Notes: a model not told the origin generated them from the sequence alone. Shown: positions 25,141 to 57,535, counted from the stretch's first letter. The stretch: 64,000 nt of DNA from Deltaproteobacteria bacterium (GCA_019307135.1 JAFDKF010000002.1:13998-77997); one strand, 5' to 3'. Translations and numbers: made by a program.

Positions 25141-25845
25141 ATGGTCCAGGCCAATCATATCATACCTGAGAGGGAAGAGGCCCCTCGCACCCACTGTATT
25201 CGCTGTGGAACCTGTTGTATGAAAGGGGGGCCCACCTTACACGAGGAGGACGCTATCCTGTTTACGAAAGGAATTCTGAAAAGGTCCGATGTTTATACCT
25301 TGAGAAAGGGTGAAGTCGTCCGCAATATTGATGACACTCTGTTGGTGCTGGAACAGGAAATTATCAAGATTAAAGGGCAGGGTGAAGCCTGGTCATGCAT
25401 GTTCTACGATGATGATCAGGGCGCGTGCAGGATTTATGACCACAGACCACTTGAGTGCCGGGCATTGAAATGCTGGGACCTGCGAGGATTTAAGGAAGTC
25501 ATGGAAAGACCGTGTCTTCAACGAAGGGATCTTATCAAGCGAGATGATGGCATTCTTGAGATCATAAGCGCCCATGAACAGAGGTGCGCTTATGAGACCT
25601 TAGAATCAGCCGTAAGTGGGCTGCGGGGACCGGATTCCGACAAGGCAGTGGAAAATATTCTTGCCCTTTTACAGTACGACCACTACATGAGGCCCCTTTT
25701 AACAGAAAAGCTCAAGGTGGACCCGAATGCGATGGATTTCTTCTTCGGCAGACCTCTTACCACCACGATTCGCATGTTTGGGCTTTGCGTCAAGCAAGAA
25801 GGCGATACCTTCCTTCTGGTGCCGGTGGAATCTCATACATCTTGA
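25141..25845 (+). CDS. YkgJ-family cysteine-cluster protein
   Basis: CIRCGTCCMKGGPTL, then CMFYD...CRIYDHRPLECR. Confidence 0.6.
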   Translation: MVQANHIIPEREEAPRTHCIRCGTCCMKGGPTLHEEDAILFTKGILKRSDVYTLRKGEVVRNIDDTLLVLEQEIIKIKGQGEAWSCMFYDDDQGACRIYDHRPLECRALKCWDLRGFKEVMERPCLQRRDLIKRDDGILEIISAHEQRCAYETLESAVSGLRGPDSDKAVENILALLQYDHYMRPLLTEKLKVDPNAMDFFFGRPLTTTIRMFGLCVKQEGDTFLLVPVESHTS

Positions 25846-25908
25846 GCGGAACAAACCGGAATTGAACAGGAAGAGAATTAATCACGAATCGTGTTTTCGT
25901 GATAGCCC

Positions 25909-26442
25909 TTACAGTCTCTGTGACGAAGAGTCCCTCTCTTTTAACAACTTTTTTTTCAACCTTCTTTTGTAAAGCTCTCGCCTGAGCTTGCTAATATGAT
26001 CAATAAATAGAGTGCCGTTCAGGTGATCAATCTCGTGCTGTAATACGATGGCAGCAAGCCCTTCCTTTTGGAGAGTGATCGCATTCCCCTCTCTATCTAT
26101 ACCCTTGACGGTAACACGTTCAGAGCGTTTAACGTCCGCCCTGTAGTCAATAACGCTCAGGCACCCTTCTTCATTGACGATTACCCCGTCGGCCTCAATA
26201 ATTTCCGGGTTGAGGAGCACAACGAGATCATTCGGTTCGTCCTTGGCTGAGGTGTCGAACATGATGATGCGACACGGTTCTCCCACCTGGTTGCTTGCCA
26301 GCCCAATGGCGTTTTGTGCGTGGTACATGGTGTCGGCCATATCATCGATGAGCTGCTGGATCTTTCCGTCGATGTCGGTGATGGGCTCAGCCCGCTCACG
26401 TAGAACCGTATCCGGATACGTGACTATCCTTCTTACACCCAT
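25909..26442 (-). CDS. def: Peptide deformylase
   Basis: GLASNQVG, EGCLSV, QHEIDHLNG. Confidence 0.9.
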   Translation of the reverse strand: MGVRRIVTYPDTVLRERAEPITDIDGKIQQLIDDMADTMYHAQNAIGLASNQVGEPCRIIMFDTSAKDEPNDLVVLLNPEIIEADGVIVNEEGCLSVIDYRADVKRSERVTVKGIDREGNAITLQKEGLAAIVLQHEIDHLNGTLFIDHISKLRRELYKRRLKKKLLKERDSSSQRL

Positions 26443-26451
26443 TCCTGTCCT

Positions 26452-27690
26452 TTAATGGTCACACACGTTTTCTCCCGCGACCAGGGTATTGGTGAGGTAT
26501 TGCTGGACCAGTTCCTCAGGGGTAAGGCCGGGGGCCCCAGTGACGACCCTGATGCTGTTTTCTCCAAAAAGGCTCAGGGCCCGCTGGCCCATGCCCCCCG
26601 CGAGGATCACCTCAACTCCGAGTTCATGGAGCCATCGCGGGAGCACTCCCGGCTCGTGGGTGGGGGGGTTCAATAGTTCCTTTTTTCTTATTTCCTGGTT
26701 TTCCACGTGGACAATGGCAAATTCCGCAGCATGGCCGAAATGGGCTGTCAGCCGTCCTTCGGCCACTGGGATCGCAATTTTCATAACCGTTTTCTCCTTT
26801 TCATCTTTTTCTTCCCTTTGGACCGATTCAGTTCCAGGTGTTTTTGTCCGGTCCTGTTCCATGATTGTTGCGACAACCTGGTTGTAGGCCTGCGTGACTT
26901 CTGTGTCCGGATATTTCTCCAGGTAGGATTCCCCTGCGTCAGCGCACTCCACCATTTTTGGATCAAAGGGGATTCGACCCAGGAAGGGGACATTCATTGC
27001 CAGGGCTGTCTTAAACCCGCCTCCGGCGCCAAACAGGTCCATAGGCTTGCCGCAGTGGGGGCACACAAAACCGCTCATGTTTTCTATCAATCCAAAGGTT
27101 GGCATTTTGACGGTTCTGCAAAAATTGATCGATTTCCTGATGTCGGCCAAAGAGATCTCCTGAGGCGTGGTCACGATAATCGCCTTGGCACCAGGGATCG
27201 TTTGCGCCACAGAAAGCGGTTCATCTCCCGTTCCGGGGGGTGAATCGAGAATCAGGTAATCAAGTCGTCCCCAGTGCACATCCGAGATGAACTGGCGGAT
27301 GACATGCATCTTCAAGGGCCCCCGCCAAATGACGGCGTCGTCCGTATCCTGAGTCAACGATTCGATGGAGACTACTTTCAGATTTTCCGAATAAGGTTTG
27401 GGTATCATTCGATTATCTGCGCTGATGTCAAGAAGTCCCTTCAGTCCTAGCATTCTCGGAATGTCAGGGCCGTGAAGGTCCACATCCATCAGACCGACTT
27501 TAGCCCCCTTTTTTGAAAGGGCCACCGCCAGGTTGACAGCAACGCTTGTTTTACCCACCCCTCCTTTGCCGCTCATGACAAGGAACTTGTTTTTGATTAG
27601 CCCCAGGGATTCCTGGATTGCCTGGTCTTGTGCAGCCGTACCAGGGTCCTGTTGAGGACCACTAGATTTACGCTTTTCGGAATGACTCAT
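26452..27690 (-). CDS. Mrp/NBP35-family Fe-S cluster carrier ATPase fused to a C-terminal NifX/MTH1175-like domain
   Basis: VMSGKGGVGKTSVAVNLA, DSPPGTGDE, CPHCG. C-terminal ~110 aa MKIAIPVAEGRLTAHFGHAAEFAIV...ILAGGMGQRA. Confidence 0.8.
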   Translation of the reverse strand: MSHSEKRKSSGPQQDPGTAAQDQAIQESLGLIKNKFLVMSGKGGVGKTSVAVNLAVALSKKGAKVGLMDVDLHGPDIPRMLGLKGLLDISADNRMIPKPYSENLKVVSIESLTQDTDDAVIWRGPLKMHVIRQFISDVHWGRLDYLILDSPPGTGDEPLSVAQTIPGAKAIIVTTPQEISLADIRKSINFCRTVKMPTFGLIENMSGFVCPHCGKPMDLFGAGGGFKTALAMNVPFLGRIPFDPKMVECADAGESYLEKYPDTEVTQAYNQVVATIMEQDRTKTPGTESVQREEKDEKEKTVMKIAIPVAEGRLTAHFGHAAEFAIVHVENQEIRKKELLNPPTHEPGVLPRWLHELGVEVILAGGMGQRALSLFGENSIRVVTGAPGLTPEELVQQYLTNTLVAGENVCDH

Positions 27691-27869
27691 AAAAAAACCT
27701 CCTCTATTATTATGATTTAGGGATTTAGGGATTCAGAAATTTGAGAATTGAAATCAGTACAACACCTTCAATTCCTGAATTCCTGAATTCCTGAATTATC
27801 CGTTGATTAATTCTTAGGTTTCTTTCATAGCAGAATGATCGCGAACCCCAAAGAGATTATCGCAATAGT

Positions 27870-28232
27870 TCAAACCCAATGCCCCTCCACATTGGGCCCC
27901 TCTACTGCCTGCAACTGCCCGCTCTTATACTGAGTAACGGCGTCTATAACACGCCCTTTGGCGCCTGTCACGACCTTGATACCTGCAGCATTCAAAACCT
28001 GAAAGGCCTTCGGGCCACAGTTGCCAGAGATCAATACATCAGCCTTTTGATCCACGATGGTCTTTCCCGCCTGGATACCTGCCCCTTGTGGCAAATTAAG
28101 ATTCTGCTTGTTTTCTGCAACCTCGTACTCCAGTGTTGCCGGGTCTACGATAATGAAGTATTTGGCCCTTCCAAAGCGGGGGTCCATGTCTGAAATCAAT
28201 TCATCTCCGGTAGACGTAACAGCTATCTTCAT
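27870..28232 (-). CDS. NifX/NifB-C-terminal (MTH1175)-like cofactor-binding protein, orange-protein (ORP)-like
   Basis: 120 aa. MKIAVTSTGDELISDMDPRFGRAKYFIIVD...QGAGIQAGKTIVDQKADVLISGNCGPKAFQVLNAAGIKV. Confidence 0.65.
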   Translation of the reverse strand: MKIAVTSTGDELISDMDPRFGRAKYFIIVDPATLEYEVAENKQNLNLPQGAGIQAGKTIVDQKADVLISGNCGPKAFQVLNAAGIKVVTGAKGRVIDAVTQYKSGQLQAVEGPNVEGHWV

Positions 28233-28321
28233 TGTTGGCTATGCCTCCTTAGATAAAATCGCGGAGCGATTTTACTCATTCAGAAATTTGGAAACTGTTT
28301 ATCTTGAACTTTTCCCCCATA

Positions 28322-28405
28322 AAACCCCACTTTGGTAAAGGGGGACTTTTCCGCCGAAGGCGGATTCCCCCCTTTGGTAAAGGGGGGTTAGGGGGAATTA
28401 ATTGA
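28322..28405. repeat. Palindromic C/G-run element, family D
   Basis: CCCCACTTTGGTAAAGGGGG...CCCCCCTTTGGTAAAGGGGGGTTAGGGGGAATT. Related copy inside dsrN at 48221-48306. Confidence 0.5.
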
Positions 28406-28425
28406 GTTTCCAAATTTCCGTTTTA

Positions 28426-28674
28426 TTATTTCGTACAGCATTGCTTAGGGTTCTCACAGGGTGAGGATTGTCCGCAGCACGCACCCCCGTCTTGTGCCCA
28501 GCGGCCACCACCCGGATTGTTGGCTCCCTTCATGATGTAACCCACAGACGCGCTCATTACCTTTTCGACCGGCTTTCCACATTCCGGACAGTCGGCAACC
28601 GGTTTTTCTTGAAGGGACTGCAACCTATCGAAGGTGTGGCCACAGTCCAAGCATCGGTATTCATAGATAGGCAT
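28426..28674 (-). CDS. FmdB-family zinc-ribbon protein with Cys-rich tail
   Basis: MPIYEYRCLDCGHTFDRL...CPECG. Tail GGACCGQSSPCENPKQCCTK. Start moved to 28674. Confidence 0.7.
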   Translation of the reverse strand: MPIYEYRCLDCGHTFDRLQSLQEKPVADCPECGKPVEKVMSASVGYIMKGANNPGGGRWAQDGGACCGQSSPCENPKQCCTK

Positions 28675-28828
28675 AATGCAACCTCCTAATTGAACGTCTC
28701 GGAATTCCTGCAACCTATTGCAATTCCTACAACTTAGGTCGAGTGGTTAAGTGGTCGAGTAGTTGAGTGGTTAACAACTCGACTACTCAACGACTCGACT
28801 AATCGACTAATTTCGGAGCGAAGCGGAG

Positions 28829-29116
28829 CTAACCTGCCTGTTTCAATACTTCCATGAGCTCATCGGCCCTATTGTATCCCGAAACCTTGACTTCGACCTC
28901 CTTAACGCCTTGTGTCTGTTGAACGGCCTTTTTAATATCATAGGCCAGCTTGAACGCCATGGGACAGACCGGAGAAGAGGGGCGAAATGTCAAGCTGACC
29001 CCCCCATCCCGGCTGATCGAAAGATCCCTGACCAGTTTCATACGCATGATGTCAAGATTGGTGCCAGGGTCGATGACTCCCCTCAAGGCATCTTCTATTT
29101 TTTGTTTGAGTGTCAT
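28829..29116 (-). CDS. DUF59 (SufT/MIP18-like) Fe-S assembly domain protein
   Basis: IEDALRGVIDPGTNLDIMRMKLVRDL...TFRPSSPVCPMA. The ATG at 29116 was chosen because the track GTG start lies inside MITE A. Confidence 0.7.
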   Translation of the reverse strand: MTLKQKIEDALRGVIDPGTNLDIMRMKLVRDLSISRDGGVSLTFRPSSPVCPMAFKLAYDIKKAVQQTQGVKEVEVKVSGYNRADELMEVLKQAG

Positions 29117-29126
29117 TGGAAATCCT

Positions 29127-29343
29127 GGCACCCTTCATTTTCGCCATAAAGTAGTTTACACTTCTTTTCATCACTCCAGGTTTGGGGTTTCAGGTTTCAG
29201 TGTTCAGGTGTCAGGTGTCAGTGTTTCTTGCACCTGACACCTGACACCAAAAAGTACACCTGACACCAAAAAGTACGAACAAAACAATTTATCTCTTGGC
29301 GCCCGCATTCTTGAAAAGTGTAAACCGAGGAATGAAGGATGCC
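29127..29343. mobile_element. MITE-like element family A, copy 2 (~217 bp)
   Basis: Same termini as 1804-2199 (GGCACCCTTCATTTTCGCCATAAAGTAGTTTACAC ... GTGTAAACCGAGGAATGAAGGATGCC), with a shorter interior of GGTKTCAG / CTGACACC units. Confidence 0.65.
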
Positions 29344-29367
29344 GAATCAAGTATCCAGAATCAAGTA

Positions 29368-30321
29368 TCAGATCTTCTTGTTCCGCTTGTCTGGCCCGCG
29401 TTGATAATAGACAAGAGAGTCCTTCTTTACCATCTCAATCGTATGGTTCTTAACCAACGCCCCAATGTATTTCAAGATTTCATTCTTATGTACACTCAGC
29501 CCGGAGGAAATGTCATCCAGCGTACACGGACGCCTTGCAAGGAGGTCCAAAAGGTCCTCCTCAACGTCGGCCCTTCTCTCATGCTTTTCCAGATCCTTAT
29601 ACGGCGCAATCACTTCGGCCTTTTCACCCAGGATTTTGCAAAACCTGGACATCTTTTCCGGGGAGACTTGCCGTGCGTACGTCTCTGCTGAAGGACGAAC
29701 CGCTGTATTGATGTGAATCTTTTGAGGATTCACCCTTTCAATCCAGTGTTTGAACTGTATCGCGTCGGCTTCAGTGGCATTGATACCGTCCAGGATAAAG
29801 ACCTCAAGCCATATCTCACCCGGATATTTCTTTCGGAAATCAATCAGGCCCTCCACCATGGTTTCAAACTTGATCTCAGGATGTGGGCGATTGATGGTTT
29901 CAAATCCCTCTTGATCGTGGGCGTCAAGAGAGGGCAACACCACGTCAGCTTCCATTATCGATTCACGGACCTCACTGTCCCCCAAGAGGGAACCATTGGT
30001 CAACACAGCCACTGGAATCTCCGTGTGTTTCTTGATATCGTGAATCAATGCTCCTGTTTGACTGTTCAAGGTCGGTTCTCCTGAACCTGCCACTGTGATG
30101 TAGTCCGCTCTGGCCCCCTCTTTCAGCTTTTGACATAACTGCTCCAGGATTCTCTCCACCGCTATGTACGGCTTTCGCTCGATTGTTTTTTCTTTGGTTC
30201 GCCCGAGCTGGCAGTAAATACAGTCGTATGAACAGACCTTGTATGGCACCAGATCGACGCCCAGGGATCGGCCTAACCTTCGTGAAGGAACCGGGCCGTA
30301 AACAAAATGCTTCATCATCAT
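29368..30321 (-). CDS. Radical SAM protein with C-terminal winged-helix-like domain
   Basis: YGPVPSRRLGRSLGVDLVPYKVCSYDCIYCQLG (CxxxCxxC), GSGEPTL. Confidence 0.8.
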   Translation of the reverse strand: MMMKHFVYGPVPSRRLGRSLGVDLVPYKVCSYDCIYCQLGRTKEKTIERKPYIAVERILEQLCQKLKEGARADYITVAGSGEPTLNSQTGALIHDIKKHTEIPVAVLTNGSLLGDSEVRESIMEADVVLPSLDAHDQEGFETINRPHPEIKFETMVEGLIDFRKKYPGEIWLEVFILDGINATEADAIQFKHWIERVNPQKIHINTAVRPSAETYARQVSPEKMSRFCKILGEKAEVIAPYKDLEKHERRADVEEDLLDLLARRPCTLDDISSGLSVHKNEILKYIGALVKNHTIEMVKKDSLVYYQRGPDKRNKKI

Positions 30322-30325
30322 TACC

Positions 30326-31189
30326 TTAATCTTTTAGAAAGCCCTCAACCTTACGCCATATCTCTTTGATAGCATCAGATACCTTGCCGTCTGAAAATTC
30401 GACAATACTCTTGCCTGCCACCATGGCATAGGTGACTGCTGTATCATAAGGGATACGACCCACCAACTCAATGTGGTTTCTTGCACAGTAGTCTGCGATC
30501 CGATCCGATATCTCCTCGTTCAGGTCGAATTTGTTGACACAGGCAAGCGTCGGTATCTTAAAATGAGCAGCCAGTCCTCCAACGCGCTCAAGGTCGTGCA
30601 AACCTGACAAGGTCGGTTCGGTCACGATCAGGACGGCACTGGTGCCGGTTATGGAGGCGATGACCGGACATCCTATCCCGGGGGGACCGTCCACAACAAT
30701 GGTATCAAGCCCTCGGTCTTCCGCCAATACCCTGGCCTGGTTTCTCACCAGACTTACCAGCAGGCCGGAGTTTTCCTCTGCGATGCCCAGCCTGGCATGG
30801 ACCATGGGCCCGAACCGCGTGTCCGAGATATACCACTTGCCGCATATATTCTGCGGAAAGTCGATGGCCTCAACCGGGCAAAAATGGACGCACACGCCAC
30901 AACCTTCACAGTCGATTCTGTTCACTACAAAGTCCGGACTTATGGCATTGAACTGACAGCGCTCCAGGCATTCCCCGCATTCAGTGCAGGTTTCCAGGTC
31001 TATCTGGGCGGTTCGGCCCCCCTTGAAATCTTCTTCGTGCTTTATTTCAGGGGCGAGTATCAGGTGGAGGTCGGCCGCATCCACATCAGCATCAGCCAGG
31101 ACTATATTTTCGGCAAGGGCCGCAAAAGAAGCGACCACGCTCGTCTTTCCCGTGCCGCCTTTGCCACTTATGATTGTTAGCTCTTTCAT
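30326..31189 (-). CDS. MinD/ParA-superfamily P-loop ATPase with inserted 2x[4Fe-4S] ferredoxin domain (copy 2)
   Basis: ISGKGGTGKTSV deviant Walker A. CTECGECLERCQFNAI and CEGCGVCVHFCPVEAI. Confidence 0.8.
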   Translation of the reverse strand: MKELTIISGKGGTGKTSVVASFAALAENIVLADADVDAADLHLILAPEIKHEEDFKGGRTAQIDLETCTECGECLERCQFNAISPDFVVNRIDCEGCGVCVHFCPVEAIDFPQNICGKWYISDTRFGPMVHARLGIAEENSGLLVSLVRNQARVLAEDRGLDTIVVDGPPGIGCPVIASITGTSAVLIVTEPTLSGLHDLERVGGLAAHFKIPTLACVNKFDLNEEISDRIADYCARNHIELVGRIPYDTAVTYAMVAGKSIVEFSDGKVSDAIKEIWRKVEGFLKD

Positions 31190-31204
31190 GAAAACAACTT
31201 ATAC

Positions 31205-31607
31205 CTTACTCATCGTTCGCTTAATAAATTCGTACTTACATTAATTCTTGTTTCAGGTTTCAGGTTTCAGGGCACATGTAGGTTTCAGGTGTCAGTGTTC
31301 AGGTGTCAGGAAAGTAAAACGGCAGTGCTGAAACCTGATTGTCCCTGACACCTTTATATGTCCTGACACCTCAATCCTCGGGTATGGGCCGGCCTTGAGG
31401 GAGGGGTTCCTCGTTGTCACTGCGTTCTCCCCTGAAACCTGAAACCTGAAACCTGAAACCTGAAACCTGAAACCTGAAACCTGAAACCTGAAACCTGAAA
31501 CCTGAAACCTGAAACCTGAAACCTGAAACCTGAAACCTGACTTATATATATCTTTTTAAAGATTCTCAAAATTGACAAAAGTCTATCCCTATTAAGCGAA
31601 TGATAAG
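31205..31607. mobile_element. Repeat-rich intergenic insert with inverted termini (family E, tentative MITE)
   Basis: Imperfect inverted ends sharing an 11-bp perfect core TTCGCTTAATA (31216-31226) with its complement at 31590-31600. The interior is GGTTTCAG/GGTGTCAG units opposed by a CCTGAAA array. No ORF. Confidence 0.4.
31431..31538. repeat. Heptanucleotide tandem array (CCTGAAA)n, about 15 units
   Basis: Read directly. Perfect 7-bp periodicity. Confidence 0.9.
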
Positions 31608-31610
31608 TTG

Positions 31611-32444
31611 TTACAACAATTCTCTTATCTTATCATACATGACCCGGAATTTATCTTTCATCTCAGGCATGACGTCTACCATCATAATACCGCGGGAATA
31701 TGCCTCGGCAATCTTACGGTCATCCGGAATTTCCATGAGGATTGGAATCTTTTCATCTCTGGCATATATGGCAACTCGATCGTCTCCTACGTCACAACGG
31801 TTTATAATGATGCCAAGGGGAATCTCCAGAATACGGACAGCCGCAACTGCAAGCTTCAGGTCGTTTAACCCGAAGGGGGTAGGCTCGGTGACCAGGATCG
31901 CAAAGTCCGAACCTTTCAGGGCTACAATGACCGGGCAGGATGTCCCGGGAGGGGCATCGATGATGCTAGTCTTTTTCGGATCGATGTGCTCCTTAACCCG
32001 GTTGATAAGGGGCGGAGACATAGCCTCGCCAATCCGCAAACGGCCATGAATAAACTCCACCGAGCCGGACGACCCTGCTTCCAATACGCCAAGCGCCCGG
32101 CCTTTCTCGCTTATAGCCTCCCTCGGGCAGACCATCATGCACCCCTTGCAACTGTGGCAGAGTTCCGGGAAGGTCAGGACGTTCTCCCCAATGACGGTAA
32201 TGGCACTGAACTGGCAGATCTCGCCACACTTTCCGCAGAAATCGCACTTGTCGAGATCGACTTCCGGGACGGGTGTCGTCACCCTCTCGGTGTAGTTGAT
32301 TTCAGGTTTCATAAAAAGGTGGGCATTGGGTTCTTCCACATCGCAATCCAACAACTGCACGCTCCCATTTAATGAAACGGCCATGTTGGTCGCAATCGTA
32401 GTTTTGCCCGTGCCCCCTTTTCCGCTCGCAATACAAATAATCAT
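31611..32444 (-). CDS. MinD/ParA-superfamily P-loop ATPase with inserted 2x[4Fe-4S] ferredoxin domain (copy 1)
   Basis: IASGKGGTGKTTIA. CDFCGKCGEICQFSAI and CHSCKGCMMVCPREAI. Confidence 0.8.
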   Translation of the reverse strand: MIICIASGKGGTGKTTIATNMAVSLNGSVQLLDCDVEEPNAHLFMKPEINYTERVTTPVPEVDLDKCDFCGKCGEICQFSAITVIGENVLTFPELCHSCKGCMMVCPREAISEKGRALGVLEAGSSGSVEFIHGRLRIGEAMSPPLINRVKEHIDPKKTSIIDAPPGTSCPVIVALKGSDFAILVTEPTPFGLNDLKLAVAAVRILEIPLGIIINRCDVGDDRVAIYARDEKIPILMEIPDDRKIAEAYSRGIMMVDVMPEMKDKFRVMYDKIRELL

Positions 32445-32595
32445 AATAACCTATCACCGGGATTTCTCGCCCGCTCCCTTCGGTCGCTGGAGCCCACAGA
32501 GATCGCTGAGATGACAATTTCTCAGCTTACAAACTCTGTGAGCCTCTGTGCGCTCTGTGAGAGACAAAAGTATCCTGTGACCACTTACATGGAAC

Positions 32596-32817
32596 TTATT
32601 CCCGTGTCATTGCGGTCCCGCACTTGGGGCATTTTTCCTCAAAGCACGGCTTTCCCAACTGGTGGGGCACCTTTTCACCGCAGCTCGGACAAACGCAGTT
32701 TCCACCAGGGCCGAGGGCACGGCCACCACCTCGACCGCGGCCACCGCCGCCCCCTCCCATGCCTCTACCTGTTCCCGGGCCTTGGCCCCTGGGGCCTGTT
32801 CTGTCTCCTTGTGGCAT
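32596..32817 (-). CDS. DUF5320-type Gly/Arg-rich protein with C-terminal zinc ribbon
   Basis: MPQGDRTGPRGQGPGTGRGMGGGGGGRGRGGG, then CVCPSCG...CPKCG. Confidence 0.65.
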   Translation of the reverse strand: MPQGDRTGPRGQGPGTGRGMGGGGGGRGRGGGRALGPGGNCVCPSCGEKVPHQLGKPCFEEKCPKCGTAMTRE

Positions 32818-32863
32818 TGTCGCCTCCCTAAATAAAATTGTAATAGTTCACCGCAAAGCGATT

Positions 32864-33514
32864 TTATTTTTCAAGCTCTTTGATCCGCCTCTGGATTTCC
32901 TCCATCTGCTCGCGTAACGTCCGGGCGTCTTCCTTGAGATGGGCAAGCTCGTCTTCCCTTGTGACCTGAGCTTGAGATGGCATGGGCGGTGTGCCATACA
33001 GACCACCTCCCATACCTCGGCCCATGCCACGACCCATGCCGCGACCACAACCACCTCCCATGCCGCGACCGCCTCCCATACCGCGACCCATGCCAAAGCC
33101 GGTACCAGGTGCTTGCTGGAGCCAGGGGCCCTGGCGTTGTTTGGTAATGGCCTGCAAGCCCGAATGGTTCTGAGCGTTGGGTTCTTCGCTTGGTTTTAAT
33201 CGTCCGTTTTTGTATCGCTGGACCGCCTGACGCACCGTCCCGGATAGACCAGTCATGACGTCAAGCCCTGCGGCCGAAAGCACCTGGTGGGCATTAGGGC
33301 CAACGTTTCCTGTGAGAACTGCCTTTGCTCCCTTGTCAGCAACCACCTTGGCCGATTGGATCCCCACACCACTTCCTTGAGCGAGGTTTGTATTGGGCAC
33401 TGCCTCGAAAGTCATGTCGTCTAAATCCACAACCATAAAATATTGACATCTCCCGAATCGGGGATCGACCTCTGACTCCAGGTCAGGTCCCGTTGATGAA
33501 ATAGCTATCTTCAT
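32864..33514 (-). CDS. NifX/MTH1175-like domain fused to a Gly/Met/Arg-rich low-complexity segment and coiled-coil tail (DUF5320-like C-terminus)
   Basis: MKIAISSTGPDLESEVDPRFGRCQYFMVVD...TGNVGPNAHQVL, then GFGMGRGMGGGRGMGGGCGRGMGRGMGRGMGGG, then EDELAHLKEDARTLREQMEEIQRRIKELEK. Confidence 0.7.
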   Translation of the reverse strand: MKIAISSTGPDLESEVDPRFGRCQYFMVVDLDDMTFEAVPNTNLAQGSGVGIQSAKVVADKGAKAVLTGNVGPNAHQVLSAAGLDVMTGLSGTVRQAVQRYKNGRLKPSEEPNAQNHSGLQAITKQRQGPWLQQAPGTGFGMGRGMGGGRGMGGGCGRGMGRGMGRGMGGGLYGTPPMPSQAQVTREDELAHLKEDARTLREQMEEIQRRIKELEK

Positions 33515-33651
33515 AAATAAATCTCTCCTTTGAACCCTTCTAACTAGACGTCCTACACGTCGCGGAATGTCTACAACTTATGGAAATCCCCACGACTGTA
33601 GGGTCGGCTTTATGCCGACCGCCACAGGGCGGGGTAAACCCGCCCCTACCT

Positions 33652-34071
33652 CTAACTGATCTCTTCCACATTCTTGCCAGCATTTGGCCCGGGACTGGTC
33701 ACGAAGATATCCGTAATCTTTACGACAATGGCCGACTTGGCTGTGAGATCAGGTTTTTCTGCCTTGACCCACTCAACGGCCATATCGTAGATCTTGCCAG
33801 ATGTTTCAATCCTGGGTGTCCCTTTGAACTGATACCCCTTGCGGGGTTTCACATCCCAATCCCATGCAGAGATGGCCATGACCGGGTTTTCCTTAACGTT
33901 TTCGAGGGTCTTACTCATAAAGATATCGGCCATCATGATCTCATCGTCCGAAATGGCCTTAACGTGATGAATCGGGACCACGTTGGGAACGCCCTCCTTG
34001 GTACAGGTAGCTACGGCATAACCTCTGGTTTTTTCCATGACATCCTTCATGTCCTGCGTTAATTTTGCCAT
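33652..34071 (-). CDS. Pyridoxamine 5'-phosphate oxidase-like FMN-binding split-barrel protein
   Basis: 139 aa. GYAVATCTKEGVPNVVPIHHVK...MMADIFMSKTLENVKENP. Confidence 0.65.
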   Translation of the reverse strand: MAKLTQDMKDVMEKTRGYAVATCTKEGVPNVVPIHHVKAISDDEIMMADIFMSKTLENVKENPVMAISAWDWDVKPRKGYQFKGTPRIETSGKIYDMAVEWVKAEKPDLTAKSAIVVKITDIFVTSPGPNAGKNVEEIS

Positions 34072-34364
34072 TTGTTGCCCCCTTTCTTTTTTTGTAATAG
34101 TTCCCCCTGTCTTGTCATTTCGAGCGAAGCGCCCGCCCTGGCGCGACAGCCCGCCCTGGCGCGACAGAAGCCGGAGAATGCCCCGCAGAAAAAAAACCGG
34201 TCTGGGCCAGGGAAGTTGGACAATGTCCAGGGGAGAAAAACCCGGCCCGCCCTGGCGCGACAGAAGCTGGACAATGCCACGGAGAGAAAAACCCGGTCTG
34301 GGCCAGGGTCTGGGCCAGGGAGAAATCTGTGTTATGCGCCCTGCTGGAAGCCCAAGATTTCTCC

Positions 34365-34790
34365 CTACCCCTTTTCTGCTATTCTGTGAAACTCCCGACC
34401 TTCACATGAAGGACATTTCTTGGGTCGCCCGGTGCCAGGATGCTCTTCCCAGCGGCCCTGGCAGTGGTCGCACAAAAAGAGACGGATGGCCCTCGGGTTG
34501 ACCCTTTTGTAATTTCCCCCGTCCACAGAAATAGCCTTGCCGTGGATTAGCGCGTCTGCCACGGTCTTCCTCGCCTGTTCAATAATGCGCCCAAAGGTCG
34601 CCCTGGACACGTCCATCTGCTTGCCTGCTTCTTCGTGGGACAGCCCCAAGAAATCAGCAAGCCTTAATGCTTCAAGCTCATCTAGGGTGAGTTGGACCTG
34701 TTCTAGATCCATCATGGGGACTCCCCTGGGCTTAAAGTAGCTTGTCTTCGGGTCGATTTCCACAAGGCGACTTTTTTGGGGGCGTACCAT
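34365..34790 (-). CDS. DUF134 (UPF0251) family putative DNA-binding regulator with C-terminal zinc-ribbon tail
   Basis: MVRPQKSRLVEIDPKTSYFKPRGVP...LTLDELEALRLADFLGLSHEEAGKQMDVSRATFGRIIEQARKTVADAL. Tail CDHC...CPSC. Confidence 0.75.
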   Translation of the reverse strand: MVRPQKSRLVEIDPKTSYFKPRGVPMMDLEQVQLTLDELEALRLADFLGLSHEEAGKQMDVSRATFGRIIEQARKTVADALIHGKAISVDGGNYKRVNPRAIRLFLCDHCQGRWEEHPGTGRPKKCPSCEGREFHRIAEKG

Positions 34791-34800
34791 GGTGCCTCCG

Positions 34801-34820
34801 TTATAAGCATATGCTTATAA
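34801..34820. promoter_or_regulatory. Perfect 20-bp palindrome (candidate operator) in the DUF134 leader
   Basis: TTATAAGCATATGCTTATAA, located between the predicted -10 box and the ribosome-binding site of ORF 34365-34790. Confidence 0.45.
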
Positions 34821-34823
34821 TGT

Positions 34824-34852
34824 ACTATAGGGAGTGCCCCCTGACTTGTCAA
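34824..34852 (-). promoter_or_regulatory. Sigma70-type promoter of the DUF134 gene
   Basis: Minus strand TTGACA (34852-34847), 17-nt spacer, TATAGT (34829-34824). Confidence 0.6.
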
Positions 34853-34898
34853 GCTGTTTTCTTGAATGCCCTCCAACTACATGGTGACTGATTGGTCG

Positions 34899-34927
34899 TT
34901 GACAGTTATTGCTTTTCTCTGTTAATA
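34899..34927 (+). promoter_or_regulatory. Putative divergent promoter for the 35023 operon
   Basis: TTGACA (34899-34904), 17-nt spacer, TTAATA (34922-34927). Confidence 0.45.
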
Positions 34928-35022
34928 GTTCATCATCAAAAGCATTGGACAGGGATTTCCTGTTTGAAGCGGCGCAGCCGCGTTACATAAAATCGTGCAA
35001 CGATTTTATCTGGAGACGAATC

Positions 35023-35667
35023 ATGTTGGACTTTTCAAAGACGTTTGAGAAATACGAGACTCTGGTTTCTGAAGTTGACAAAATCTTCGCAGCCGTACAG
35101 GAGGCCCACAAGAATTGTGTTCGCTGCAAGATCCATTGCTGTGACTGCTGCTACGCCGTGTTTGATGTCACCCTGATCGAATCGGTCTATATGAACTATC
35201 ATTTCAACAAATCGCTCACCAGGAAGGAGCGCAGACAGATCCTCAGGCGGGCGGAAAAGGCTGATCGCAAATTTTATCAGATTAAACAAAAGCTTCAGAA
35301 AATGTACATAGACCGGGGAAAGCCTCCTGAGGAGGTGTTCCACCAGTTGGCCCACGAGCGAGTATCATGTCCACTCCTCAATGACGAGGACCTGTGTGAT
35401 CTGTACGTCCGGAGGCCCATTACATGTAGAGTCTACGGTATTCCCACCTCGATAGGGGGAACTGCTCACATCTGCGGAAAATCCGGCTTCAAAGAGGGAA
35501 CCGCCTATCCCACGGTGAACCTAGATAAGATGAATGATCGCCTCTTTGAGCTCTCCGGGGACCTCCTTAAAGAGATTGGCTCAAAGCGTTCAAAGATCCA
35601 TATGAGCCTTGTACCCGTTTCATCGGCCTTGATGACCACCTATGACGAAGAATACTTTTTGGCTTGA
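35023..35667 (+). CDS. YkgJ-like cysteine-cluster protein
   Basis: Start moved to the ATG at 35023 (GGAGA upstream). CVRCKIHCCDCCYAVF, CPLL...CDLYVRRPITCRVYG. Confidence 0.55.
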   Translation: MLDFSKTFEKYETLVSEVDKIFAAVQEAHKNCVRCKIHCCDCCYAVFDVTLIESVYMNYHFNKSLTRKERRQILRRAEKADRKFYQIKQKLQKMYIDRGKPPEEVFHQLAHERVSCPLLNDEDLCDLYVRRPITCRVYGIPTSIGGTAHICGKSGFKEGTAYPTVNLDKMNDRLFELSGDLLKEIGSKRSKIHMSLVPVSSALMTTYDEEYFLA

Positions 35668-35683
35668 CGCAGGAGGTACCTAG

Positions 35684-36031
35684 ATGCGCAAACTATCGCC
35701 TGAAGATGAAGAGAGGAAGAAATTCATTTTTGACAGCATGTCCCCCAGGCGGCAAAAGCACATCCTTAAGAAAGAGGGCTACGACAAGTGGGACCCCTTC
35801 ATTGAGCCAAAAGAGCCCATTGATATGCGAGAGGATAAATCGAAGCGCACAGCCATTGAGTTGGCCCGAGAATTCCTTGCCACGTGGAATGTGGAAGAGT
35901 ATAGCAACGCCTTTGGCGAAGGGGCCTGGGAAATCTGTCTTGGAATCATTAACAATGACGACCGGTATAAGGGGATGTACGAATTTTCCTGTTGGTACCG
36001 GGAGTTCCTAAAGAAACAGGGCCTGGCGTGA
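35684..36031 (+). CDS. Hypothetical protein (115 aa)
   Basis: AGGAGG 7 nt upstream of the ATG at 35684. Preferred over the overlapping frame 35664-36011. No recognisable motif. Confidence 0.5.
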   Translation: MRKLSPEDEERKKFIFDSMSPRRQKHILKKEGYDKWDPFIEPKEPIDMREDKSKRTAIELAREFLATWNVEEYSNAFGEGAWEICLGIINNDDRYKGMYEFSCWYREFLKKQGLA

Positions 36032-36178
36032 CCGGGGAAGGGGTTTATAGGGTTCGTTGGGTTTATGGTGTTCCTTGAGTTGAAACTTAACAAACCATGT
36101 AACCCCAACGAATTCAACAAACACACAATGCAGTTTTCATTAAATCCGCAATCCGCATTCTAAAATCCGAAATCGTTT

Positions 36179-38503
36179 ATGCCGGCCCATTTCCTCTTCA
36201 TTCATGTCAACTTGTTAGCCCCCCTCAACTCCCCGGACACCATCCCCATATCTGAAGCCACGATCCTGGCCCATTTGAAGAGTCATGGATTCACCGGGCA
36301 AATTTTGGGGGATTTTGCCGATAGTCCTCTCAAGCCCGGCGTTTTGGCAAAGGCCATTCAGACGACCCAACCGCTTGCCATCGGCTTTACCGCATACCAG
36401 GAAAACATAGAGCAGATAAGGCTCTGGGCACGGTTCGCCAAGAAGTTGTCCCCGGCCGTCAAAATCATCATAGGAGGGCCCCAGGTGACCTTTATGCCTG
36501 CTGAGGGCTTGAGACACATGCCGGAGGTCGATTTTCTGTGCCGTGGGGAAGGAGAGGATGTAATGTTGGGTCTTGCCCGGGCCCTGAGCCAGATAACAGA
36601 CATTGCCTCTGTCCCAGGCCTCTGTTTTCTGCGTGAGGGTGAGGTCATAGAGACCGGTCCGGCACACGGTGCGAAAGATCTGGACACTTACGCCTCTCCT
36701 TACCTGATGGATCTGGTCGATTTGACCTGTAAGGACCGGGCCGTGATGCTGACATCCCGGGGATGCTCCTACGATTGTGCCTTTTGTTACACCCCAAGGG
36801 CGAGTCGCAGGAGCGTTAGATTCTACTCCACAGAGCGGATTATAGATGAGATGAAATATCTCAAGTCAAAGGGTATAAGGGCATTTTGGTTTGCTGATAC
36901 CAATTTCTCCTTTTCTCGAAAGCGCCTGGTCACTCTCGTTGAGGCCATCATCAGAGAGGTCCCTGGCATTACCTTCTGGTGCCAGACCCGCTATGATTTG
37001 GTTAACCGCGAAGCGCTATCCTTGCTCAGGCGGGCTGGTGCAGATAACGTGGCTTACGGACTTGAGTCGGCAAATTCCTCAGTACTTAAAAGGATCAATA
37101 AACCGATTGACTTGGAGCGCCTTTCAGAGGTGATCCGCCTGACCCAGGAGGCGGGTATCAATGTGGAGATCTTCAGCATGTTTGGTCTTCCCGGGGAAAC
37201 GTTTGACCAGGCACTGGGTACTCTGGCGTTTGTGAAGAAAAACCGTGTTGCCATACAAGGCAACTCCATATCGCAGCAGGCCCATCTTTTTTTTGGCACC
37301 CCGATGAATGACAATCCCGTAGCTTACGGTATCCGTCCCTTTCAACATTCGCGGCCTGCTTACCTGAGTGTATGCAGGGATTACGAGACCGATACGATGT
37401 CGGCAGATGAAATCCGGCGTATGAGTTTGATCTGGCGATTGAACCGTAACGACTTTGCCGAAGATGTGAGCGCTGAAAGAAACCTCTTTCACAGGGCTGC
37501 ATTCATCATCCAAAACCGCAGTGCCCTGACTCACCGGGCGGAGGCCACCTGTTTGCTGGCCCGCATATACCTTGCCCTTGAAGAGTATGGCGCGGCTTTA
37601 GATTGTATGAACCTGTTGAGCAAAGAGTTCCCCGGAAATCCGGGGGTGCAAGGGCTTCTACAGGGCCCTTTTTTGTGCTTCAAGGTGAGTCAGCAGAGAG
37701 CACGCCCTGGCTCCAAGGTGATTTATGACTGCCAGGGCTCTATTAACGACAAGGTGGTGCCTGCCACATGCGGCAGGTTCCAGGAGGCGATTCTTGGCAA
37801 GGGAGTGCTCTTACCAGAATTCGAAAGACATCTGAAGGAAATAAGTCCAGCAGAATACGCCCGGTTTGAGATAACCTTTCCTGCCGGCTATGGACAGAAG
37901 GACCTGGCGGGGAAGGTGGTCACGTTTCGGGTTCACGTGCACCACACCATGGAGCCGGCGAGAGTGAAAAACTATGAGAACCTCGATGATCATGCGTTGC
38001 GCAACGAATACGAGCTGGAGGATACAGAAGGGTTGCGGGAGCACAATATCAACCTTTATTATAAGGTGCTTCACAGGGCTAATATGCGGGGGCTGGTCCG
38101 GGAGATGACAGACTATCTTGTGCTCATGAATCTTTATCTTAAGCTGGGATTTGTGGATCTGGCGACCGCTCTTATCGGGAAGCTTCCGGAGAACCCCATG
38201 ATCGTGACTCGTGGAGCCCATATATTTCGCATGAACGGCCAACCCGAGAAGGCTTTAGAGCTTCTGAACAGGATCGGTAAAGACGGGACAAGGGAGCGGT
38301 TGATCCAGGCACAGGCCCTCTTTGATTTGAACAGGCTCGAAGAATCCGAGGCAACTGTCAACGACCTGAAGCTGCAAAATAATATCCAGCTTGCAGATCT
38401 TCGGGTTCAGCTTGCTGCCGAACTGGCCTTACCTATAGAGACTTATCTTAAAAGGGAAGAGGCGCTGCTCGACGCCAAGATGCAGGGGATGCTCAGTGGA
38501 TAA
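36179..38503 (+). CDS. B12-binding-domain radical SAM enzyme fused to helical/TPR repeats and a trigger-factor-type FKBP/PPIase-like domain
   Basis: N-terminal B12-binding-like Rossmann region, then SRGCSYDCAFCYTP (CxxxCxxC). Residues ~520-600, VIYDCQGSINDKVV...LGKGVLLPEFERHLKEISPAEYARFEITFPAGYGQKDLAGKVVTFRVHV, match the trigger-factor PPIase pattern. TPR-like helices follow. Confidence 0.8.
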   Translation: MPAHFLFIHVNLLAPLNSPDTIPISEATILAHLKSHGFTGQILGDFADSPLKPGVLAKAIQTTQPLAIGFTAYQENIEQIRLWARFAKKLSPAVKIIIGGPQVTFMPAEGLRHMPEVDFLCRGEGEDVMLGLARALSQITDIASVPGLCFLREGEVIETGPAHGAKDLDTYASPYLMDLVDLTCKDRAVMLTSRGCSYDCAFCYTPRASRRSVRFYSTERIIDEMKYLKSKGIRAFWFADTNFSFSRKRLVTLVEAIIREVPGITFWCQTRYDLVNREALSLLRRAGADNVAYGLESANSSVLKRINKPIDLERLSEVIRLTQEAGINVEIFSMFGLPGETFDQALGTLAFVKKNRVAIQGNSISQQAHLFFGTPMNDNPVAYGIRPFQHSRPAYLSVCRDYETDTMSADEIRRMSLIWRLNRNDFAEDVSAERNLFHRAAFIIQNRSALTHRAEATCLLARIYLALEEYGAALDCMNLLSKEFPGNPGVQGLLQGPFLCFKVSQQRARPGSKVIYDCQGSINDKVVPATCGRFQEAILGKGVLLPEFERHLKEISPAEYARFEITFPAGYGQKDLAGKVVTFRVHVHHTMEPARVKNYENLDDHALRNEYELEDTEGLREHNINLYYKVLHRANMRGLVREMTDYLVLMNLYLKLGFVDLATALIGKLPENPMIVTRGAHIFRMNGQPEKALELLNRIGKDGTRERLIQAQALFDLNRLEESEATVNDLKLQNNIQLADLRVQLAAELALPIETYLKREEALLDAKMQGMLSG

Positions 38504-51560: not shown

Positions 51561-51848
51561 CTAGGAGGCTGTCCGAGAATACGTGTTCATGTCATTTCGA
51601 CCGTGTTCATGTCATTTCGACCGAAGGGAGAAATCTAAAGCTTATGTATTTTCAATAGAATAAGATTTCTCCCTGGCCCAGACCTGGCCCCATAAGGCTA
51701 GCGGGCTCATTGTAACACGTGTCGCGCCCCTAGCCCAGACCGGGATGACACGAACGACACGTCTGTCCAAGGCTGTCGCGCCAGGGCGGGCAGGGCGGGC
51801 GCTACGCTCGAAATGACAACTCTGGTCAGTTCTCGGACAGCCTCCTAG
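51561..51848. mobile_element. MITE-like element family F (288 bp)
   Basis: 19-bp perfect inverted termini CTAGGAGGCTGTCCGAGAA / TTCTCGGACAGCCTCCTAG. Internal 20-bp tandem duplication GTGTTCATGTCATTTCGACC x2 (51583-51622). The interior shares the CGCGCCAGGGCGGGC / CTCGAAATGACA box with 34090-34160. Confidence 0.6.
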
Positions 51849-57298: not shown

Positions 57299-57535
57299 GG
57301 TAACAGTGTGCTCATGGTGACAGCCTCCAAACTAGATCGGGTGTAAATCACAGCTGTTGGCAATGAGAAAATCCATGTCCGTCTGCTACGTATTTAGCTT
57401 TGGGGAAAAGGTGTCAGGTTTCGGGTTTCAGGTGTCAGGATCGAAAAACTTGAAGAGCTGAAACCTGAAACCTGAACACTGACACCTCACAATTGAACTC
57501 AATAACCAACAATCTTGATTTACACCCAACTAGAT

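Follow-up and report, generated by a model that had tools for sequence, protein, structure and literature searches.

A run of minus-strand genes for NifX-like, MinD-type, Mrp and radical S-adenosylmethionine (radical SAM) proteins lies in the middle of a 64,000-nt stretch of DNA from a Deltaproteobacteria bacterium (GCA_019307135.1, JAFDKF010000002.1:13998-77997; the window, by which we mean this whole stretch), and it raises the question of which system these genes encode, what that system does and what controls it. To judge from its predicted proteins, the cluster is very probably an operon of the orp type, that is, one for an orange protein (ORP) complex. Its host is an uncultured Desulfobacterales bacterium, and the genes are arranged as a single operon, headed by a gene for a DUF134 protein and carrying lineage-specific accessories. 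The cluster belongs to a known system, of which the DUF134-headed, enlarged form is not described in the accessible literature; an initial annotation of this DNA, which had read the cluster as an enlarged ORP-like metallocofactor system, was right in substance. The Desulfovibrio complex and its orp operons are reportedly treated in Fievet 2011, among other studies. No physiological role has been found for the complex since the first description of the orange protein, and iron-sulfur (Fe-S) biogenesis in strict anaerobes is poorly mapped; the initial annotation had called the role unclear and the literature concurs (PMC8359166). By gene content and analogy, we lean, with a little better than even confidence, towards the storage and delivery of Fe-S or metal-sulfide units as the job of the cluster, most likely under the control of DUF134.

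Gene content and the orange-protein core

From 34852 to 25881 on the minus strand, a promoter is followed by 11 cluster genes and then by a gene for peptide deformylase, with all positions of the open reading frames confirmed. The genes run in the order DUF134, PNPOx-fold protein, NifX-DUF5320 fusion, a 73-residue protein, MinD-ferredoxin ATPases A and B, radical SAM enzyme, DUF59, FmdB, a 120-residue NifX-like protein, Mrp-NifX fusion and deformylase (Table 1). Twelve consecutive genes had been counted between 26452 and 34852; as a run this stands, the twelfth being the deformylase gene, but the interval itself holds 11. Searches of each reading frame with hidden Markov models (HMMs) bear out nearly all of the domain assignments made earlier, since every domain call except that of the 73-residue protein passes the curated Pfam or NCBIfam cut-off. 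These calls include Nitro_FeMo-Co in all three proteins said to carry NifX-like domains, CbiA and Fer4 in two of the three P-loop ATPases and ParA (Mrp) in the third, DUF59, Radical_SAM in the gene that starts 4 nt past a MinD-like gene, the zinc ribbon of the Cys-tailed FmdB protein and DUF134 at the head. The cluster recurs with 100% identity on a contig of the NCBI metagenome-assembled genome (MAG) GCA_019306295.1 (locus L093) and nearly identical on a contig of MAG GCA_019310695.1 (L094), and close homologues of its proteins bear the name Desulfobacterales.

The assignment to the orp type is carried by three observations. First, the 412-residue Mrp-NifX fusion scores 538.6 bits against the NCBIfam equivalog model of MrpORP, NF041136 (cut-off 450, model positions 3-365), and its C-terminus is the conserved NVCDH motif. 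Second, the best match of the 120-residue protein in the PDB is the ORP of D. gigas, 2WFB, with an E-value of 1.3e-22 over 113 residues. Third, the two MinD-ferredoxin ATPases are adjacent paralogues with 34% mutual identity and a deviant Walker A motif, and each keeps all 8 invariant ferredoxin Cys residues; A also has the invariant Cys of a PPGxxCP motif. No curated model of Orp3 or Orp4 exists, and the pair is likened to these proteins by domains, Cys residues and pairing. Homologues of B at 79-100% identity are abundant in Desulfobacterales metagenomes. The correspondence to the Desulfovibrio orp genes that had been drawn in the initial annotation is thus upheld.

The likeness to the ORP system of D. 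vulgaris Hildenborough, D. alaskensis G20 and D. gigas (Pardoux 2019, PMC6345978; PMC8359166, on OrpR, 2021) consists of MrpORP, the two MinD-ferredoxin ATPases and the single-domain NifX-like ORP, together with a small Cys-rich protein encoded just upstream of the ATPase pair and the restriction to anaerobes. The differences lie in regulation and in gene content. The Desulfovibrio genes form two divergent operons under sigma54, OrpR and IHF, whereas the window has one DUF134 operon with a sigma70-type promoter. The window set is larger, as had been claimed, and adds radical SAM, DUF59, FmdB, PNPOx-fold and tailed NifX genes, while its MrpORP has exchanged the Cys of the HFGHCE motif for Ala. 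In Desulfovibrio, the system includes a physical Orp3-4-5-8-9 complex.

Table 1. Predicted features of the cluster in the direction of transcription, with positions in the window
Feature	Position	Strand	Product (residues)	Evidence
sigma70-type promoter, TTGACA-17 nt-TATAGT, upstream of DUF134	34824..34852	-		11/12 consensus positions
Candidate operator, perfect 20-bp palindrome TTATAAGCATATGCTTATAA, between -10 box and ribosome-binding site of DUF134	34801..34820	.		cross-phylum consensus TTATGAGCATATGCTCATAA
DUF134/UPF0251 DNA-binding protein, C-terminal CxxC...CxxC ribbon; predicted regulator	34365..34790	-	141	Pfam PF02001
Tandem repeat of 51 nt (x3) that contains sub-repeats of 18 and 12 nt; gap of 293 nt downstream of DUF134	34131..34320	-		Tandem Repeats Finder (TRF)
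PNPOx-fold split-barrel protein	33652..34071	-	139	Pfam PNPOx_N 54.5 bits
NifX-like domain, Gly/Arg/Met-rich cationic tail (1 Cys) and coiled coil (DUF5320)	32864..33514	-	216	Nitro_FeMo-Co 83.7 bits, DUF5320 37.4 bits
Small protein, MPxGDxTGP/GRG-rich N-terminus and CxCxxC...H...CxxxxCxxC module; orp5 position	32596..32817	-	73	family alignments
MinD-type P-loop ATPase with inserted 2x[4Fe-4S] ferredoxin domain, paralogue A; Orp3/Orp4-like	31611..32444	-	277	Pfam CbiA, ParA, Fer4
421-nt gap, (CAGGTTT)x16 facing inverted heptamer arrays; long hairpin	31190..31610	-		TRF 15.7 copies at 100%; fold z -11.2
MinD-type P-loop ATPase with inserted 2x[4Fe-4S] ferredoxin domain, paralogue B	30326..31189	-	287	Pfam CbiA, Fer4, ParA
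Radical SAM enzyme, CX3CX2C core and C-terminal winged helix	29368..30321	-	317	Pfam Radical_SAM 58.3 bits
DUF59/FeS_assembly_P (SufT/CIA2-type)	28829..29131	-		Pfam 63.5 bits
FmdB-type zinc ribbon, 5-Cys C-terminal tail	28426..28713	-		Zn_ribbon_8 63.8 bits, TIGR02605 70.4 bits
Insert like a miniature inverted-repeat transposable element (MITE), 108 nt with internal hairpins, bounded by perfect terminal inverted repeats of 14 nt	28283..28418	.		inverted-repeat search; gap fold z -7.0
Single-domain NifX/MTH1175-like protein; candidate orange protein (Orp8) orthologue	27870..28232	-	120	Pfam Nitro_FeMo-Co 82.1 bits
MrpORP, Mrp/NBP35 P-loop (GKGGVGKT, CPHC) fused to NifX-like domain	26452..27690	-	412	NF041136; ParA and Nitro_FeMo-Co
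Peptide deformylase	25909..26442	-		Pfam 176.9 bits; 9 nt downstream of MrpORP gene

Conservation of the enlarged gene set

The neighbourhood of these genes was surveyed in 80 distant loci found in a scan with a MinD-ferredoxin profile, one genome per species; the loci are a sample among the matches listed (600 stretches), not a census, and components were counted with HMMs built from the window proteins, within 7 kb and on the same strand. The loci span Desulfobacterota, Planctomycetota, Omnitrophota, Chloroflexota, Bacillota, NC10, Nitrospirota, Atribacterota and several archaea, and in most of them the MinD-ferredoxin pair has NifX-like genes alongside. The ATPase pair, A then B, is found in 79 loci, an ORP-type NifX gene in 71 and a second NifX type in 68. 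The other components are Mrp (33 loci), DUF5320 (31), the 73-residue family (27), FmdB (17), the NifX-DUF5320 fusion (16), DUF134 (12), radical SAM (11), the Mrp-NifX fusion (11) and DUF59 (4), with the PNPOx-fold protein in none.

Relatives keep the arrangement as well as the core. The order in L002 is that of the window (DUF134, A, B, radical SAM, DUF59, NifX, MrpORP), and L095 has 10 of the 11 window genes, with gaps of tens of bases and a 4-nt overlap at A/B; in both loci the DUF59 gene overlaps the stop of the radical SAM gene by 4 nt. Since L002 and L095 keep the window's order, the enlarged gene set is, as far as gene order can tell, a real unit, and the gene-neighbourhood counts in anaerobes that the initial annotation had proposed as a check turn out in its favour. 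The cluster and its relatives show the Desulfovibrio orp genes to be a reduced version of a far broader set, one that takes in a storage protein like IssA, a DUF59 factor and a particular family of radical SAM enzymes as well. NifU_N (IscU-like scaffold) genes end some orp-like clusters (L004, 11284-11754; L101, 10984-12454), and L101 also encodes a DUF59-Mrp fusion protein.

Three genes are, on the same comparison, lineage-level additions: the PNPOx-fold gene, which is present in L093 to L095, the FmdB gene at this position, which is missing from the clusters of L002 and L095, and the deformylase gene, which stands beside the cluster in L093 and L094 and not in L002 or L095. The deformylase gene is followed by a terminator-like hairpin at 25903-25881 and is probably co-transcribed with the cluster as a trait specific to the lineage. 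For the PNPOx-fold protein, which had been labelled a PNPOx-like flavoprotein, the fold is supported; the flavoprotein label, on the other hand, is unsafe because the best solved relative, HupZ (E-value 1e-10), binds haem, and FMN and haem are both candidate cofactors. By the gene call in L093, the FmdB product probably has 82 residues (28426-28674), and the DUF59 product is also shorter there, with 95 residues.

A tailed NifX-like protein and its small neighbour

In the 216-residue NifX-DUF5320 fusion, the Nitro_FeMo-Co match spans residues 13-102, and this NifX part is as close to ORP as the 120-residue protein is (best match 2WFB, E-value 4e-22). The tail at residues 111-176 has an isoelectric point of 11.7 and contains 24 Gly, 6 Arg, 1 Cys, 6 Met and 3 aromatic residues, and the coiled coil lies after it. 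IssA of Pyrococcus furiosus, a NifX domain with a Gly-rich, cationic tail in which there is a single Cys, is a store for thioferrate and can rebuild ferredoxin clusters (PMC5524996); the paper on IssA also mentions an uncharacterised mesophile clade with Gly-rich tails, 'IssX' (Vaccaro 2017, PMC5524996). By its domains and composition, the window fusion has an IssA-like architecture, and IssA is a closer precedent than the initial annotation gave. Like IssA, it has an N-terminal IPR003731/NifX-like domain, and the tail that follows resembles that of IssA in being Gly-rich, cationic and probably disordered, with a single Cys. The window tail, on the other hand, is Met-rich rather than aromatic-rich, comes without the proline-rich linker and ends in the DUF5320 coiled coil. 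In related loci, standalone DUF5320 proteins have a high content of Gly, Arg, Trp, Tyr and Phe.

The 73-residue protein, encoded next, gave no Pfam DUF5320 match at E<0.01 and no Pfam family at its curated cut-off. A BLASTP comparison with the DUF5320 fusion was uninformative owing to low complexity, and family alignments were used in its place. These reveal an N-terminal MPxGDxTGP...GRG motif common to DUF5320 proteins, followed by a conserved module of 6 Cys and 1 His. The cluster had been credited with two DUF5320-type proteins; the fusion keeps that name, whereas the 73-residue protein is DUF5320-like at its N-terminus only. Its family is widespread, un-named and mostly encoded directly upstream of the first MinD-ferredoxin gene. 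For Orp5, homology to a small [2Fe-2S] protein has been reported; the gene order dvu2105-2104-2103 and the small size of Orp5 agree with the position and size of the 73-residue protein, and the two may be homologous.

The radical SAM enzyme

The radical SAM enzyme reached the cut-off of no NCBIfam model. Its best matches (viperin-like, tungsten-cofactor maturase, MoaA and TYW1) were all far below cut-off, NifB was not among the 16 NCBIfam matches at E<=1e-3, and a sequence search of the PDB returned no match. Outside the CX3CX2C motif, C228 and C266 are the only invariant Cys residues. An AlphaFold2 model (mean predicted local distance difference test score, pLDDT, 76) has a small radical SAM core and a C-terminal winged helix, and Foldseek places it about equally close to pyruvate formate-lyase (PFL) activase, viperin, NifB, TYW1, LIAS and MoaA (template-modelling score, TM, ~0.5-0.56), with NifB structures at ranks 6, 8 and 15 and TYW1 at rank 14. 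Two candidate identities were rejected: NifB, for want of a model match and of sufficient Cys residues and with a fold no closer than those of PFL activase and viperin, and TYW1, which underlies the JGI name 'wyosine synthetase' for homologues, with 36.3 bits against a TIGR03972 cut-off of 318. The analogy to a minimal nitrogenase-cofactor line in the initial annotation finds no support in the sequence.

Full-length orthologues (130-305 bits) are found in 11 distant orp-like loci, three of them archaeal, with Methanocellaceae, Methanoperedens and Thermoplasmata among the hosts on the archaeal side, and the family is therefore a recurrent accessory of the orp-like system. A metagenome scan with the enzyme gave only short contigs, and contexts were taken from look-ups of the exact protein.

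DUF134 and a candidate operator

The sigma70-type promoter at the head of the cluster is the best match in an 11.5-kb scan, with its -10 box at 34829-34824, and the same -35/-10 layout is seen in L002, L032, L097 and L101. No -24/-12 motif of sigma54 (TGGCAC-N5-TTGC) was found on the coding strand of the cluster, and no gene for a sigma54 enhancer-binding protein within it. Together with the near-consensus promoter, this supports the earlier view that a DUF134 regulator stands in place of a sigma54 activator. OrpR is reported to be limited to some deltaproteobacteria (PMC8359166). The DUF134 protein itself scores 90.9 bits (PF02001, cut-off 27) and also passes Sigma70_r4_2, with 26.3 bits against 25.7. 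In its AlphaFold2 model, a sigma-region-4-like helix-turn-helix (HTH) superposes on sigma region 4 at 0.7-0.9 A over ~50 residues and is accompanied by a Cys4 ribbon, which is kept in some homologues only; for the whole protein, no match was found in the PDB. A search of the accessible literature returned no functional study of DUF134, UPF0251 or DUF5320 and no paper with the operator sequence.

Past the -10 box lies a perfect palindrome, the sole such site in the 64-kb window. At <=3 mismatches it is found in 14 MinD-ferredoxin-anchored loci (L093 and L094 left out as duplicates of the window), and it heads orp-like or DUF134 clusters in 18 other loci overall, whereas three shuffles of all 1.37 Mb gave 0 sites at this threshold. 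Two thirds of these sites (14 of 21) are <=200 nt upstream of an orp-like gene or in a DUF134/NifX divergent gap, and 4 of the remaining 7 are in loci outside the gene table, where they stand at the promoter of DUF134 or of the first gene. The palindrome follows a TTGACA/TATAxT promoter in L032, L097 and L101.

An independent test started from DUF134 itself, with a profile search and the inspection of seven DUF134 genes of different lineages in their contigs. Six of these loci have NifX and/or Mrp/MinD-ferredoxin genes alongside and carry the palindrome, with 1-5 mismatches, at the promoter of DUF134 or of the first gene; four have it at <=2 mismatches, and L099 and L101 at 5, the L101 variant being itself a perfect palindrome. 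The seventh, L104, has neither the palindrome nor such neighbours. Over the 82 loci analysed, 11 of the 15 with DUF134 have the palindrome within 4 mismatches. L055 (662-1459) encodes a fusion of a DUF134 domain with an ORP-type NifX domain, beside a second, standalone DUF134 gene.

We infer from these associations that the palindrome is a candidate operator bound by DUF134, and keep the assignment at that level because some loci have the site without a DUF134 gene within 10 kb; an alternative local regulator was sought in the palindrome loci without DUF134, and none was found there. This cross-phylum operator, tied to DUF134 and absent from the initial annotation, is the most useful new element of the analysis. 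It gives DUF134, a family without known function or solved structure, a testable DNA target and a regulon, and it offers a handle on the signal that switches the system on. The loci L100 (4445-9435) and L103 (6001-8930) combine DUF134 and the palindrome with an OrpR-like PAS/sigma54 activator, all amid NifX and Mrp genes; the DUF134 and sigma54 schemes are thus not mutually exclusive.

A further motif, TGAACTATTAMA, occurs three times in the window (32839-32850, 34093-34104 and 34921-34932), always on the minus strand, which is the coding strand of the cluster. The genes for the 73-residue and PNPOx-fold proteins each have a copy 20-25 nt before the start codon, and the third copy is upstream of the DUF134 promoter. 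The chance expectation is 0.38, three copies were reached in no shuffle, and the motif is missing from the compact relative L095.

A proposed function and its alternatives

Storage and delivery of Fe-S or metal-sulfide units would proceed in several steps. First of all, a DUF134 dimer, through its sigma-region-4-like HTH and with its Cys4 ribbon, would bind the palindrome past the -10 box and repress its own gene and the operon, and would be released by a redox or metal-sulfide signal. Second, by analogy with IssA, the NifX-DUF5320 and 73-residue proteins would hold anionic, thioferrate-like iron sulfide or thiometallate on the NifX domain and the cationic tails, and the 120-residue ORP would carry a small, non-covalent metal-sulfide cluster. 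Third, an MrpORP dimer would build a bridging [4Fe-4S] cluster on its CPHC motif and pass it to both MinD-ferredoxin ATPases. The transfer from MrpORP to Orp3/4 is the only step with experimental backing: Desulfovibrio MrpORP binds Fe-S clusters and transfers them in vitro to aconitase and to Orp3/Orp4 (PMC6345978). Finally, the MinD-ferredoxin heterodimer would mobilise clusters and deliver them to clients using ATP and its low-potential clusters, the DUF59 protein (SufT/CIA2-like) may act as a targeting factor, and the co-translated radical SAM enzyme could be a client or the modifier of a small protein.

An Fe-S role is supported by this published transfer, by the IssA-like tail and by the NifU_N genes and the DUF59-Mrp fusion found elsewhere, and the same gene order and 4-nt overlaps in L002 and L095, combined with the co-occurrence of the core in the 80 loci, argue that the cluster is a functional unit. 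Nbp35/Cfd1 with CIA2/MIP18, of the cytosolic iron-sulfur protein assembly (CIA) pathway, and bacterial ApbC/Mrp with SufT offer a parallel, in that a Mrp/NBP35 P-loop scaffold or carrier with a CXXC motif has a DUF59 protein encoded alongside. The window proteins, on the other hand, have NifX-like domains and MinD-ferredoxin ATPases as fusion partners or neighbours, and the cluster encodes no other CIA or SUF components.

Several points weigh against storage and delivery under DUF134 control. The terminator-like hairpins after DUF134 make read-through into the rest of the operon uncertain, and L004, L005 and L013 carry the palindrome without a DUF134 gene within 10 kb. At residues 318-324, the window MrpORP has HFGHAAE in place of the HFGHCE of most fusions; it has lost, as has that of L002, the Cys proposed as a ligand of the [3Fe-4S] cluster in the NifX domain of MrpORP (PMC6345978). 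The Met-rich tail and coiled-coil end of the NifX-DUF5320 fusion depart from the aromatic-rich tail of IssA. Furthermore, ORP as isolated from Desulfovibrio carries a non-covalent Mo/Cu cluster, S2MoS2CuS2MoS2, and not Fe-S (PMC6345978), and the sole physiological phenotype reported for the orp genes is an altered cell morphology or division in D. vulgaris, where MrpORP is polar (PMC6345978, PMC8359166).

Storage and delivery can also be framed more widely, in a form that we put forward tentatively and hold to be doubtful. DUF134 proteins would be metal-sulfide- or redox-sensing repressors, and in lineages from Desulfobacterota to Chloroflexota and Nitrospirota they would read the same 20-bp palindrome, TTATGRGCATATGCYCATAA. 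Their regulon would be an ancient pathway by which anaerobes store and deliver Fe-S, with NifX-like carriers, tailed proteins of the IssA kind, the MinD-ferredoxin and Mrp ATPases, DUF59 and a radical SAM enzyme of its own. If true, this pathway would be related to the eukaryotic Nbp35/CIA2 branch and stand beside ISC, SUF and NIF, and the ORP complex would have a function.

The Mo/Cu cluster of isolated ORP, the protein to which the 120-residue product is closest, bears on a first alternative, in which the system handles thiometallates (Mo/W-Cu-S). Molybdate and tungstate become thiometallates in sulfidic cells and trap copper, and the NifX-like proteins and cationic tails could sequester, detoxify or supply such heterometal clusters, with the ATPases serving the traffic; the DUF134/NifX locus L100 adjoins MoeA and MobB, in keeping with this. 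We nevertheless consider it unlikely, since neither the window cluster nor its close relatives have genes for Mo, W or Cu transport or cofactors next to them, the activity that has been demonstrated for MrpORP is the transfer of Fe-S, and NifU_N genes join orp-like clusters elsewhere.

A role in cell division or polar positioning, in which the MinD-like ATPases would place the complex at the pole or septum in a redox-dependent manner and the metal clusters would serve only as sensors, is improbable: what recurs alongside is a set of metal-sulfur binders and Fe-S factors (NifX, Mrp, DUF59, NifU_N and radical SAM) rather than division genes, and the flanks of the cluster are free of division genes. 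It would, on the other hand, account for the morphological defects on loss of orp expression in D. vulgaris and the polar MrpORP, and Orp3/Orp4 have MinD-like C-terminal amphipathic helices.

Less probable again is a split NifB-like line, with the radical SAM enzyme building a complex cluster, of the carbide type or another, on NifX-like carriers and the MinD-ferredoxin ATPases acting in the manner of NifH. The domain logic fits, as NifX-like folds in the FeMo-cofactor pathway (NifB/NifX/NafY/NifH) bind anionic metal-sulfur clusters non-covalently and a radical SAM enzyme and SIMIBI Fe-S ATPases stand alongside; NifB also appears among the Foldseek matches, and orthologues of the enzyme recur in distant orp-like loci. 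However, the enzyme is not NifB by sequence or Cys residues, its two further invariant Cys being too few for auxiliary clusters of the NifB type, its match to the folds of PFL activase and viperin is equal or better, and most of the 80 orp-like loci do without it. Furthermore, nifEN and nifDK do not adjoin the cluster, and the window ATPases have inserted ferredoxin domains where NifH has a bridging cluster. That repeat inserts have broken a decaying operon into separately expressed or silent pieces, as the gaps of up to 421 nt with strong hairpins, the terminator-like sites after DUF134 and the repeat arrays that differ between near-identical MAGs might suggest, is hardly credible, since all 11 reading frames are intact and keep their Shine-Dalgarno sites and conserved motifs, many environmental homologues match the proteins at 79-100% identity, and the only operator and the only strong promoter stand at the head.

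Repeat-filled gaps

Almost every gap in the cluster had been said to carry a hairpin or MITE insert, and TRF and an inverted-repeat search agree: the 11 cluster genes are separated by 10 gaps, of which 8, each 115-421 nt long, are filled with tandem or inverted repeats. They hold 7-9-nt tandem arrays, inverted arrays, the 51-nt tandem repeat and one MITE-like element, and the repeat units include (CAGGTTT)x16, GGTGTCA, AATTCAGG and CTCACAGAG. On the transcribed strand, 7 of the 8 repeat gaps fold with z <= -2.6 against shuffles, and the median z is -3.96, versus -0.94 in the rest of the window's gaps. The 51-nt repeat after DUF134 holds three terminator-like hairpins (34307-34292, 34304-34290 and 34264-34246). 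An Rfam scan of 25500-36500 at E<=1 gave no riboswitch, only sub-threshold microRNA and small-RNA noise on the repeats.

The heptamer family and two other repeat units are also found elsewhere in the window, and the 18-mer sub-repeat of the DUF134 gap is seen again at 51774; the repeats are thus genome-wide elements rather than signals specific to the cluster. The MITE-like insert occurs once in the window. Heptamer-family arrays (CTGACAC x14.4 and CAGGTTT variants) lie in other gaps at 1847-1996, 2109, 18210 and 57290-57487, and they resemble the short tandem heptamer repeats of some filamentous bacteria. None of these repeats is present in the gaps of L095. Across the cluster, L094 is 99.9-100% identical to the window, the two MAGs coming from one population, and differs from it by indels: 103 nt in the heptamer array (5 versus 16 copies; 31431-31540), 69 nt just upstream of the -35 box (34853-34925) and 37 nt within DUF134 or just past it. 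These differences may be true hypervariability or the product of a collapsed assembly. Overall, the gaps do carry such repeats, which are specific to the lineage and vary from one MAG to another.

Neighbouring genes

An operon on the plus strand at 34909-38503 is divergent from the cluster and also stands beside it in relatives; it is seen in L001, L002 and L095. It encodes a 252-residue CxxCxxCC-domain protein, a 115-residue protein without a family and a 774-residue B12-binding radical SAM protein with TPR and FKBP domains, and genes for a PrmA-like methyltransferase and YcaO lie beyond it. In L001, a Desulfobacterales genome, the counterpart of the cluster's radical SAM gene directly faces this divergent operon, without orp genes between. 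A second CxxCxxCC-domain protein, of 234 residues, is encoded on the plus strand at the other end of the cluster (25141-25845), and the cluster is thus bracketed by two members of this putative metal-chelating family.

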